Origin: Octopus vulgaris
Lineage: Eukaryota
Assembly: GCA_951406725.2 (NCBI GenBank)
Contig: OX597822.1
Coordinates: forward strand, 75,454,001-75,518,000
Direction of reading: 5' to 3'
DNA: 64,000 bases
The notes under the pieces were generated by a model, which had not been told where the DNA came from, searched no databases, and worked only from the letters and a program-made list of their open reading frames with translations. Made by a program: the position numbers and the translations under genes. This document shows positions 5,830 to 55,320 of the stretch, piece after piece (position 1 is the first letter of the stretch; each line of letters starts with the position of its first letter).

Positions 5830-6245
5830 AGGCGGCGTGCTGGCAGAAACGTTAGCACGCCGGACGAAGTACGTAGCCGTATTTCGTGTGCCGTTACGTT
5901 CTGAGTTCAAATTCCGCCGAGGTCGACTTTACCTTTCATCCTTTCAGGGTCGATAAATTAAGTACCAGTTACGCAATGGGGTCGATGTAATCGACTCAAT
6001 CCGTTTGTCTGTCCTTGTTTGTCCCCTCTGTGTTTAGCCCCTTGTAGGTAGTAAAGAAATAGGTATTTCTTCTGCTGCTACGTTCTGAATTCAAATTCTG
6101 CTGAAGTCGACTTTGCTTTTCATCCTTTCGGGGTCGATAAATTAAGTACCAGTTACGCACTGGGGTCGATATAATCGACTTAATCCGTTTGTCTGTCCTT
6201 GTTTGTCCCCCTATGTTTAGCCCCTTGTGGGCAATAAAGAAATAA
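5830..6245 (+). mobile_element. tRNA-derived SINE (family B), dimeric
   Basis: A-box TGGCAGAAACGTTAGC, B-box GTTCAAATTCC, central CCTTTCATCCTTTCGGGGTCGATAAATTAAGTACCAG present twice. Confidence 0.9.
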
Positions 6246-6698: not shown

Positions 6699-6914
6699 TG
6701 TAAAGTATAGAAGCCATCTTATCATTGCTAACCACATTGAGGAGGGGGTGTTACTGTAGCTTTATAGCCCCAAGAGATCGTCGTCTCTAGCTGGCTTTAG
6801 ACACCATATTAGTCTAAAGCCAGCTAGAGACGACGATCTCTTGGGGCTATAAAGCTACAGTAACACTCCCTCCCAATGTGGTTAGCCATGATAAGATGGC
6901 TTCTATACTTTACA
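6699..6914. repeat. Near-perfect inverted repeat, ~104-bp arms, 9-nt spacer
   Basis: 6699-6802 is the reverse complement of 6812-6914 with few mismatches. Confidence 0.95.
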
Positions 6915-6950
6915 TTATCGAGCGATTACTGTTTCAATCTCATTCTGAGA

Positions 6951-7008
<58 letters not shown>

Positions 7009-23214: not shown

Positions 23215-23650
23215 GGATCTTTTCGGCTTGAACAGCAGCTTTTTAAAATAATTTCCACGTAACTAAACTCTTTTAAACTTCGTATACTGGTAGAATGTGT
23301 TTATATAACATCTTTTTCTCTTGGCTTTATTGAGAAAATCTATAGTTTGTAAGATATTTGTTGTTTTTTTCTTCAATTTCTGCAAATTCAACCAATCAAT
23401 GACGTCTATTTGAGGTGAAAACATTCTGTGCCCTATGAATATGTCCCTCGTTTAAGAAACAGATTGGGTTTATTTACATTTCTGAAGAAAAAAGATACCC
23501 TTCCCCCCACCCCTAACCCTAACCCTAACTAACCCTAACCCTAACCCTAAGACAGATTGAAATGCAATAGATCGATACTAGGATCATAATTATGGGTGAC
23601 AATTTTATATAACACCGCTAGAAAAACTGCCGTTCAAACCGAAAAGAACC
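23215..23650. mobile_element. MITE with GG termini and TTAA-type target (Kolobok-like), containing (CCCTAA)n
   Basis: TIRs GGATCTTTTCGGCTTGAACAGCAGCTTTT / AAAAACTGCCGTTCAAACCGAAAAGAACC; flanks TTAA and TTTA. Confidence 0.8.
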
Positions 23651-38906: not shown

Positions 38907-39062
38907 ATTGTCCGTACCTTCGAACGCGGATAGACGAAATAGGGTCAACTGAAGAAGGGGAATATTCCTTATGTTGTATATCTTGTACTCTGCTCTTTCG
39001 TTGTTTGAAAAAAATGTTCGTTTCCATGTTTTTGTATATATATATACATTATATATATATTA

Positions 39063-39093
<31 letters not shown>

Positions 39094-39094
39094 C

Positions 39095-39154
<60 letters not shown>

Positions 39155-39173
39155 ATATATATATATATACATA

Positions 39174-39350
<177 letters not shown>

Positions 39351-39412
39351 ATATATATATACATACATATATACAATATACATACATGTACACACACACA
39401 TATTTATGCTTG

Positions 39413-39448
<36 letters not shown>

Positions 39449-39672
39449 AAATACTGAATTTCTAAATCTCTCGTAGAGACATGTACGGTGGTGGGGCGAT
39501 AGAATGGTTGTATACTGTCAATCTAACACGAACGTGACAGTAGGGGGTACACCACCGCTGTATAGCCCTAGGAAGCATCGAACGCCTCCTGATGGCTTTG
39601 ACACATTTTCCCCTGTGTCCTTATATACATTTACGAAGGGGAGACAAACACCCCCGGCCGCCGAAGCTGCTA

Positions 39673-39716
39673 CTAGGGACACGTGTTTCAGGATCATTGT
39701 CCTTCATCGGCCTAGA
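39673..39716 (-). ncRNA. Type I hammerhead ribozyme (copy 1, antisense)
   Basis: Reverse complement of the copy at 39771. Confidence 0.8.
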
Positions 39717-39770
39717 TATATACAATTGCAAAGTCGAGACAAATATCACCAGCTGACCGGTGTCTGCTAC

Positions 39771-39815
39771 TCTAGGCCGATGAAGGACAATGATCCTGAA
39801 ACACGTGTCCCTAGA
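39771..39815 (+). ncRNA. Type I hammerhead ribozyme (copy 2), predicted cleavage after C39809
   Basis: TCTAGG-CCGATGA-AGGA(CAATGA)TCCT-GAAA-CACGTG-TC-CCTAGA. Confidence 0.85.
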
Positions 39816-40137
39816 TGCAGCTTCGGCGGCCGGGGGTATTTGTCTCCCCTTCGTAAATGTATATAAGGACACAGGGAAAAATATGTCAAAGCCATCAGGA
39901 GGCGTTCTATGCTTCCTAGGGCTATACAGCGGTGGTGTGCCCCCCTCTACTGTCACGTTCGTGTTAGATTGACAGTATACAACCATTCTATCGCCCCACC
40001 ATCGTACATGTCTCAACGAGAGATTTAGAAATTCAGTATTTCTTATTTTGATAATCAGTGAATAGACTTCACTGAATTATAGATATATACAATTGCGAAG
40101 TCGAGACAAATATCACCAGCTGACCGGTGTCTGCTAC

Positions 40138-40182
40138 TCTAGGCCGATGAAGGACAATGATCCTGAAACACGTGTCCCTAGA
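40138..40182 (+). ncRNA. Type I hammerhead ribozyme (copy 3), predicted cleavage after C40176
   Basis: Identical to copy 2. Confidence 0.85.
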
Positions 40183-40348
40183 TGGAGCTTCGGCGGCCGG
40201 GGGTGTTTGTCTCCCCTTCGTAAATGTATATAAGGACACAGGGAAAAATGTGTCAAAGCCATCAGGAGGCGTTCGATGCTTCCTAGGGCTATACAGCGGT
40301 GGTGTACCCCTCTACTGTCACGTTCGTGTTAGATTGACAGTATACAAC

Positions 40349-40389
<41 letters not shown>

Positions 40390-40448
40390 GCGTGTTTGTA
40401 TAAACTATACATATGGTAATGTAATATAACATAATAGACATGTAGACA

Positions 40449-40502
<54 letters not shown>

Positions 40503-41996: not shown

Positions 41997-42360
41997 CCTT
42001 ATCTACTCTAGGCATAAGGCCCGAAATTTTGGGGGAGGGGCCACTTGATTCGATCGACCCCAGTACGCAACTGGTACTTAACTGTCAAAGTCGACCTCGG
42101 CGGAATTTGAACTCAGAACGTAGACAGACGAAATACCTATTTCTATTTCTTTACTACCCACAAGGAGCTAAACACAGAGGAGACAAAGAAGGACAGACAG
42201 ACGGATTAAGTCGATTATATCGACCCCCGTGCGTAACTGGTACTTAATTTATCGACCCCGAAAGGATGAAAGGCAGAGTCGAACTCAGAACGTAACGGCA
42301 GACGAAATATGGCTACGCATTTTGCCCGGCGTGCTAACGTTTCTGCCAGCTCGCCGCCTC
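41997..42360 (-). mobile_element. SINE family B (partial dimer) with TSD, inserted in an older SINE
   Basis: TSD ACAA(G/C)GCCAGCAATT at 41982-41996 and 42361-42375. Confidence 0.9.
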
Positions 42361-42744
42361 ACAACGCCAGCAATTTCGTGAGAGAAATATGTCGACTCTC
42401 TCGACCTCAGTGCCAAACTGGTACTCATTTTAACGACAATAAAAGGATGAGTGACAAAATTGACCTCGGCGGAATTTGAACTTAGAACATAAAGACAGAC
42501 AAAATGCTACTTATTAAAAATAAGATGCAGCACGAAATTTTGTCCGTGAATAGGTCGCGGTTTCAAAGCGACGAAAATATTTCGACATATTAAATTTAAA
42601 GGTTGAAGTGAATCTAGCGGTTTTTGTGTGTTTTTAAATGGCTTATAAACACCTTCCACGCTGCAATTGTTTTAGTTTCAGCATACCATCTCAAATCAGG
42701 TCATTTACTATGCAAATACATTTCCTTCCGTAATAAAAATATAT

Positions 42745-46769: not shown

Positions 46770-48914
<2,145 letters not shown>

Positions 48915-54708: not shown

Positions 54709-55320
54709 TTTTCTACTGTAGGCACACGGCCCGAAATTTTGCGGGAGAGGGTCAGTCGATTAGAACGACCCCATTACGCAAATGGTTCTTAATTTATCGA
54801 CCCTGAAAGGATGAAAGGCAAAGTCGACCTCGGCGGAATTTGGGCCCAGAACATAAAGACAGACGAAATACCAATTTCTTTACTACCCACAAGGGGCTAA
54901 ACACAGAGGGGACAAACAAGGACAGACAAACGGATTAAGTCGATTACATCGACACCAGTGCGTAACGGGTACTTATTTAATCGACCCCGAAAGGATGAAA
55001 GGCAAAATCGACCTCAGCGGAATTTAGACTCAGAACATATAGACAGACGATATACCGCTAAGCATTTCGCCCGGTGTGCTAACGTTTCTTATTTCTTACT
55101 GCCCACAAGGGGCTACGCACAGAGGGGGCAAACAAGGTCAGACAAACGGATTAAGTCGATTATATCAACCCCAGTGCGTAACTGGTACTTATTTAATCGA
55201 CCCTGAAAGGATGAAAGGTAAAGTCGACCACGGAAGAATTTGAACTCAGAACGTAACGGCAGACGAAATACGGCTACGCATTTCGCCCGGCGTGCTAACG
55301 TTTCTGCCAGCTCGCCGCCT
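54709..55320 (-). mobile_element. Multimeric SINE family B with 19-bp TSD
   Basis: TSD TAGTT(G/A)GTGTAAAATAATC at 54690-54708 and 55321-55339; central domain present three times. Confidence 0.93.

Follow-up and report, generated by a model that had tools for sequence, protein, structure and literature searches.

A hammerhead-delimited repeat in the Octopus vulgaris genome as a non-LTR retrozyme probably copied by a Penelope-like enzyme

Animal retrozymes have already been proposed to be non-autonomous derivatives of Penelope-like elements (PLEs), in a 2026 preprint that bases the case for PLE dependence on co-occurrence and homology and leaves the mechanism to be worked out (bioRxiv 10.64898/2026.07.22.740005). 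Metazoan non-LTR retrozymes consist of tandem, non-coding units of 150–450 bp, each with a type I hammerhead ribozyme; they are self-paired, and have a GC content below 50%, target duplications of more than 4 bp and a proposed dependence on PLEs (PMC7229834; bioRxiv 10.64898/2026.07.22.740005). Insertions of EN+ PLEs are marked by partial tandem copies, an inverted and truncated copy, a tail at one end and a bias toward (TA)n (PMC8557442). In vitro, the PLE tail corresponds to the stretch between two internal start sites of reverse transcription, and the protein is predicted to be a dimer (PMC11167929). Target-specific Tx1 LINEs, which carry an ORF1 zinc knuckle, an APE endonuclease and a reverse transcriptase (RT), occupy a fixed place in another transposon, as Tx1 does in Tx1D and Tx1-Mar in Mariner-N4 (PMC4494074), and ORF1-only derivatives are described as HAL1 half-LINEs (PMC5753468).

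We analyzed a locus within a 64,000-nt stretch of the Octopus vulgaris genome (contig OX597822.1; hereafter, the window). A 43-nt hammerhead motif occurs there three times without a single difference, at 39772–39814 and 40139–40181 on the plus strand and at 39715–39673 on the minus strand. The complete type I hammerheads, with a C4 core in place of the canonical U4 and a palindromic stem III, span 39771–39815 and 40138–40182 (+) and 39673–39715 (–). A preliminary description of the locus had reported three identical hammerheads with a 367-nt period; the period and the identity of the motif were reproduced, and the identity of the stems requires correction in that the minus-strand copy lacks the sixth pair of stem I. 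The plus-strand copies are spaced by 367 nt, with predicted cuts after 39809 and 40176, and delimit one full monomer (39810–40176, +; GC content, 44.7%), in which position 1 corresponds to window position 39810.

We computed the folding energy of this monomer (–126.7 kcal/mol, z = –5.4) and found that none of 100 shuffled sequences was equally stable; when the monomer was folded as a circle, as the preliminary description had proposed, z was –6.1 (30 shuffles). The predicted fold contains the rod and the hairpins listed in that description, and its claim of a strongly structured monomer therefore stands. For a dimeric transcript (39740–40200), a double hammerhead with a shared 8-bp stem III was predicted in both the minimum free energy and the centroid structures, which is consistent with the dimer-type ribozyme suggested earlier. 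The absence of a credible ORF was likewise confirmed: two stop-to-stop frames of at least 110 aa across the element showed no Pfam family match at E ≤ 1, and no RT + GIY-YIG ORF was found in the element or in the 64-kb window. The Rfam search recommended at the same time turned out differently, since none of the five matches to the element at E ≤ 10 was to a hammerhead family, and no hammerhead appeared among the 150 of 281 matches listed for the whole window. Contigs from four sequencing runs (three guessed to be RNA and one unlabelled, none on an RNA record) cover the stretch and are uninformative about level, ends or circles.

The locus is a single insertion into a (TA)n microsatellite, of which the left part lies at 39035–39446 and the (TA)n-rich right part at 40354–40499. 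An inverted, 5΄-truncated arm (39444–39716, –) comprises monomer positions 329–367 and 1–237 and ends at a fixed 3΄ site, B, and a direct arm of 1.75 monomers (39713–40356, +) comprises positions 271–367, 1–367 and 1–182 and ends at a second fixed 3΄ site, A. The 5΄ ends of the two arms are joined by a 4-nt microhomology (39713–39716). Of the limits given previously (39444–40355), the start was retained and the end was moved to 40356. The minus-strand hammerhead is not a ribozyme of a second polarity; it belongs to the inverted arm of this same insertion. Hammerhead viroids and viroid-like circles share with the element their size, branched fold and hammerhead processing, the last being predicted for the element. 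Unlike viroids, which have ribozymes in both polarities and no DNA phase, the element is DNA-encoded, belongs to a dispersed genomic family, carries its ribozyme in one polarity only and gives no sign of RNA-only replication; the term 'viroid-like' was thus an overstatement. The 55 nt between site A (39991) and site B (40046), at 39992–40046 (+), would correspond to the PLE 'tail', with both sites as putative starts of reverse transcription, if the meaning proposed for such tails (PMC11167929) applies.

To describe the ends more broadly, we collected 90 loci of the window subfamily (F1), comprising the 30 best whole-monomer matches and 60 loci drawn from the first 100 hammerhead matches listed; because loci were sampled by hammerhead or whole-monomer match, short copies are under-represented. 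Two outward-facing 3΄ ends were present in 51 loci and one end in 39, and the ends lay at monomer position 182 (A) or 237 (B). Whenever both ends were canonical, one was A and the other was B (41/41 loci, P = 4.5 × 10^–13), and a further 10 two-ended loci had one non-canonical end. Single ends used A in 16 loci, B in 18 and another site in 5. The same rule was found in a sister subfamily, F5 (15/15 among 39 loci, with two further loci having one other end), giving 56 of 56 scorable loci for F1 and F5 together. Canonical F1 ends adjoined (TA)n in 99 of 126 cases. Target duplications of 7–14 bp outside microsatellites were seen in 8/90 F1 loci, most of the others lying in (TA)n, where a duplication is unreadable. 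Among strand switches defined by BLAST, 35 of 55 overlapped by 1–7 nt, and arm lengths did not differ between A and B arms.

Like EN+ Neptune-type PLEs, the family thus exhibits partial tandems, an inverted 5΄-truncated copy, a tail at one end, (TA)n targets and a hammerhead with a palindromic stem III (PMC8557442; PMC11167929; PMC4209133). Because the insertion ends carry this PLE signature, the RT that the preliminary description had supposed to be borrowed can be specified as being of the PLE type. We infer that, of the two nicks making up a staggered cut, one primes at site A and the other at site B. Unlike the EN+ PLEs of those reports, the element has no ORF, shows no sequence match to the sampled autonomous families and has a tail of 55 nt, compared with published tails of 30–40 nt. 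Judged from these sequences, it would work like a non-autonomous PLE. Whereas the published connection of metazoan retrozymes with PLEs, as far as the cited parts go, concerns sequence homology, the connection here comes from the insertion ends, namely two arms with a strict combination of A and B.

The element is one copy of a dispersed clan of about seven subfamilies. A search of its own genome gave 2162 candidates, of which 40 were scored; there were 430 exact matches to the hammerhead core, 759 matches to a sister hammerhead pattern (20 for the control) and 2504 exact matches to the 3΄ motif at site A. Subfamilies F2–F4 are 72–82% identical to F1, F5 and F6 were found subsequently, and unit length across subfamilies is 342–367 nt. 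The C at core position 4 pointed out in the preliminary description was present in 97 of the 100 listed F1 cores and in part of F2, U4 prevails in F3–F5, and about half of F1 has an extra G in stem III. In vitro, U4C reduces hammerhead activity and need not abolish function (PMC3088659). F1 loci differ from one another by 5.4%, and repeats within a locus by 2.6% (same arm) or 2.3% (opposite arms); the earlier word 'young' therefore fits F1, at about 5%, less well than F5, which is far younger. F5 (L247, L268–L317; e.g. C2:54864367–54866561) has a 352-nt unit with the canonical U4 core, copies that are 98–100% identical, arms of up to 6.5 turns and 2946 first-look candidates in the genome. A further retrozyme-like subfamily (L323, L328, L332, L334) has a U3-A8 core and likewise contains the half-LINE target described below. 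Within the window, positions 6741–6953 hold what is left of a two-armed insertion, a short piece from a distantly related sister subfamily (70–81% identical to F6). Other window features are a 521-aa RT frame at 47233–48798 (Pfam RVT_1, E = 3 × 10^–31), presumably CR1-like, with a near-identical element in L184; copies of a common short repeat at 5879–6244, 42047–42491 and 54874–55305, which we take to be SINE-like; and a short, internal telomere-like (CCCTAA)n tract at 23511–23550.

We examined hammerhead covariation across 14 representatives and found that 12 of 14 pairs had changed on both sides, a number reached in 0 of 500 shuffles, and that slid controls gave 0–1 pairs. Since the rows were preselected by a pairing filter, which inflates the percentage paired, and related rows are not independent, these values express conservation of the fold and not a probability. 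All three stems around the core are supported in this manner, as expected for type I, and stem III is palindromic or nearly so in several different sequences. In a consensus fold of eight monomers, one row of which starts in flanking DNA, 24 of 80 pairs showed two-sided change. Following up widely spaced hammerhead pairs and a hammerhead loop variant brought up sister subfamilies and LINE inserts but no PLE. With its non-coding, self-paired and dispersed 367-nt unit, its GC content and its target duplications, the element is, at the level of sequence, a non-LTR retrozyme as defined in the cited portions of PMC7229834 and PMC4209133, and the description of a non-autonomous, dispersed, hammerhead-delimited monomer is supported. 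Its C4 core sets it apart from the metazoan members, among which no cephalopod is named in the cited portions of PMC7229834 and the 2026 preprint. The word 'ribozyme' is absent from the main text of an octopus repeat annotation; the family may be catalogued under another name.

Variation among the repeats of one locus bears on whether the template is a monomer circle or a multimer. At five F5 loci, a base absent from all other sampled loci fills every copy: L247 (six copies, both arms), L280 (five, both arms), L288 (four), L299 (five) and L305 (four). L299 has a second locus-wide variant that is otherwise present only in an old neighbour in L287, giving six sites in five loci with 4–6 repeats each; loci without rearrangement seldom show intermediate states. 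For a new mutation to appear in every turn, it must have passed through a single monomer, as happens in rolling-circle copying, and a one-monomer, circle-like bottleneck in F5 is thus implied by the sequences, although gene conversion, unsampled parents or assembly smoothing may also produce such variants. At L247, one variant occurs in the second turn of both arms and in no other turn, which suggests, from one site in one locus, that both arms were copied from one multimeric RNA. In F1, after leaving out six rearranged loci, two insert-bearing loci and three stray pieces, no register effect was detected; at 37 of 119 sites, it was the upstream turn that differed from the rest. Private variants of F1 were shared by tandem copies in 3/106 cases and by opposite arms in 6/135 (low power). 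Of nine Xenopus retrozyme dimers in the preprint data cited, one was cleaved (bioRxiv 10.64898/2026.07.22.740005).

We searched the genome for the Penelope-type partner. It holds young RT + GIY-YIG elements of two families, both ending in (TA)n with tails of their own. Our PLE sample consisted of 54 loci, obtained from the best 148 of 6136 endonuclease candidates in a GIY-YIG search. No terminal sequence common to a PLE and a monomer was found between these 54 loci and six subfamilies, the matches being neighbouring insertions, and among 147 loci searched, no PLE ORF was attached to the repeat. Where PLE protein matches lay near monomers, they belonged to separate neighbouring elements or amounted to a weak RT match of 30%, and no PLE ending in a monomer was found on extending an RT fragment next to L157. 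The preliminary description had allowed that the unit might occur only as the terminal repeat of a protein-coding Penelope element; with neither an attached ORF nor a matching terminus in the loci searched, this possibility finds no support. Because no autonomous PLE sharing the repeat was found in the 54 loci, we classify it as a non-LTR retrozyme, and for the same reason the partner is deduced rather than named. One young PLE family (L046–L053) has an intact 781-aa RT + GIY-YIG ORF, a 35-nt tail, a U3-A8 hammerhead-like motif and, upstream of this ORF, a separate 479-aa ORF without a Pfam family. In the second (L054, L060, L061), core position 4 of a minimal hammerhead is C in two copies and U in others; the inverted arms of L054 are 100% identical, one end being long and the other short. 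The Cys linker of these PLEs suggests the Neptune type, a label taken from PMC8557442 and our own reading.

Some monomer copies are interrupted by a same-sense insert that lies 15–35 nt 5΄ of the core of the hammerhead and has an 8–19-bp duplication around it. It is either a 1.7-kb element with one ORF of 430–480 aa (an ORF1-only half-LINE) or a 5.5-kb LINE with a CCHC knuckle in ORF1, an APE endonuclease and an RT, the architecture of Tx1 LINEs; the half-LINE ORF and the LINE ORF1 are 30% identical (E = 2 × 10^–23). From this architecture, we take the LINE to be probably of the L1/Tx1 type. In the window, the half-LINE target, which is duplicated around the insert in other copies, is empty at 40109–40125 (+), with a second empty copy at 39742–39758. 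The LINE was seen at L177:1239–6700, and LINE or half-LINE inserts, sometimes in tandem, also at L176, L180–L183 and L187–L202; L139 has a tandem insert in one arm. Among the 30 best LINE 3΄ ends, 14 were at the same F2 site (two with identical flanks), 1 was in an F5-like copy and 15 were elsewhere. Of the half-LINE 3΄ ends, 27 of 30 were at the target (the first 30 of 94 in genome order, several sharing an array): 17 were followed by monomer (BLAST), 3 by another hammerhead subfamily (by eye) and 7 by a target stub and a LINE or half-LINE, the remaining 3 continuing into unrelated DNA. Both fractions, 14/30 and 27/30, exceed the share of more than 20% of flanks in one target type that marks target specificity (PMC4494074).

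At position 312, C was found in 11 of 12 duplicates 5΄ of the insert, in 4 of 12 duplicates 3΄ of it and in 18 of 123 monomers, which suggests that target sequence from upstream is included in the LINE RNA. For the half-LINE ORF, a protein search gave no match and PDB none with a useful E-value, and its leads in Atlas were CCHC and ZCCHC3-like (0.90–0.93). In a search with the LINE protein from the genome, both named eukaryote matches were cephalopods, and no named reference RT was among the matches. Other half-LINE subfamilies form tandem arrays of ~1.8-kb units at different targets (L208–L216), and at C7:33737411–33737444 a half-LINE 3΄ end is followed by letters that, as we read them, resemble the start of U2 snRNA. 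The insert behaves like the target-specific Tx1 LINEs in its fixed place within another transposon, and its ORF1-only form parallels HAL1. Unlike the Tx1 LINEs of PMC4494074, as far as described in the part cited, its target is a ribozyme retroelement, and its position is kept across subfamilies with differing target sequence. We found no literature report of a ribozyme retroelement as the target of a Tx1-type LINE.

Several other explanations deserve consideration, the most serious of which accepts PLE-driven insertion and holds that the F1 hammerhead is weak or idle, that no circle forms and that the template consists of linear multimers that stay uncut, new multimers arising by template jumping or gene conversion. 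Such an account accommodates the C4 core and the extra G of F1, the in-register variant in both arms of L247 and the behaviour of the anole PLE in vitro, for which uncut RNA is the main substrate and hammerhead cleavage is dispensable for insertion (PMC11167929). It is harder to reconcile with stems kept by compensatory change across subfamilies, with private variants that fill all repeats of F5 loci and with the frequency at which the F1 upstream turn is the odd one out, which is that expected with one source monomer; we regard it as possible but somewhat doubtful. It appears improbable that our sample missed an autonomous PLE in which the monomer serves as terminal repeat (pLTR), here in solo form, and that the copies are ordinary truncated Penelope insertions: arms run head-to-tail through up to 6.5 monomers without an ORF, no sampled PLE terminus matches any of the six subfamilies, and PLE proteins near monomers are neighbours or weakly similar, even though every insertion feature is a PLE feature, the sampling covered the best 148 candidates and one sister hammerhead shares its U3-A8 core and stem III palindrome with the family of the 781-aa ORF.

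The tight association between LINE and retrozyme could also mean that the L1/Tx1-type LINE mobilises the retrozyme or that LINE and monomer transpose as one unit. Distances between inserts and between flanks were weakly congruent (Mantel rho = 0.48, P = 0.027, eight loci), and one arm of L006 begins inside the last ~30 nt of a half-LINE, observations that count weakly against pure independence of the two elements. Nevertheless, monomer ends have nothing in common with the LINE tail, LINE inserts have target duplications of their own, and insert sequence occurs in only 5 of 90 F1 loci. In seven loci with two arms, the arm opposite the insert has an unoccupied copy of its target site, and the inserts must therefore have come later than the retrozyme. 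We consider a LINE-driven origin very improbable; the LINE and half-LINE are best explained as passengers. Finally, a fold-back DNA element (MITE) or a satellite with a chance hammerhead-like motif would account for inverted ends in TA-rich DNA and for the lack of an Rfam hammerhead match, and is hardly credible given covariation in all three stems; it is refuted by 3΄ ends that are fixed while 5΄ truncation is random, by arms of unequal length and by copies with a single arm.

We therefore consider it likely that the locus represents a single insertion of a non-LTR retrozyme, a non-coding 367-base unit dispersed in the genome, that is copied by a PLE RT/endonuclease priming at two fixed sites on one RNA. 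In the proposed mechanism, a tandem copy would be transcribed, and adjacent hammerheads would pair via the palindromic stem III and excise monomers, which could circularise and regenerate multimers. The ends suggest that both strands of AT-rich DNA, mostly in (TA)n, would be nicked with a stagger of 7–14 bp by a PLE enzyme that is probably dimeric. One nick would prime at A and the other at B, 55 nt downstream, in accordance with the pattern of ends, and both would be copied through the hammerhead for up to several turns. The truncated arms would then be joined, as they often are in the observed loci, by a microhomology of a few bases, one-armed insertions also arising. An L1/Tx1-type LINE and its ORF1-only derivative would subsequently enter in the sense orientation just 5΄ of the hammerhead, with the target duplication seen in the present copies. 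A tentative extension, whose chances we place clearly below even, is a three-level chain of parasites: a circle-cycling retrozyme, one PLE dimer priming both strands at two fixed sites and a LINE lineage specialised on the retrozyme, whose place of insertion immediately upstream of the hammerhead would have it co-transcribed and its RNA ends cut by the host ribozymes.

Although the retrozyme class itself is known, specialists may find interest in the strict rule of two sites, in the signal of a monomer bottleneck and in the LINE that targets a retrozyme. Present copies record in their ends the reaction by which animal retrozymes return to DNA, and with the one-A-one-B rule the PLE 'tail' can be recast as a model of two primers on one RNA that is open to testing. 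In the 99%-identical sister family F5, a live substrate is available, and circle and multimer can be compared as templates at the genomic level. Should a LINE indeed follow a position beside a ribozyme from one diverged subfamily to another, site-specific retrotransposons would gain a new class of target, and target and nuclease would provide a natural example of co-evolution. If the chain of parasites is true, it would represent a retrotransposon that borrows a ribozyme rather than encoding one.
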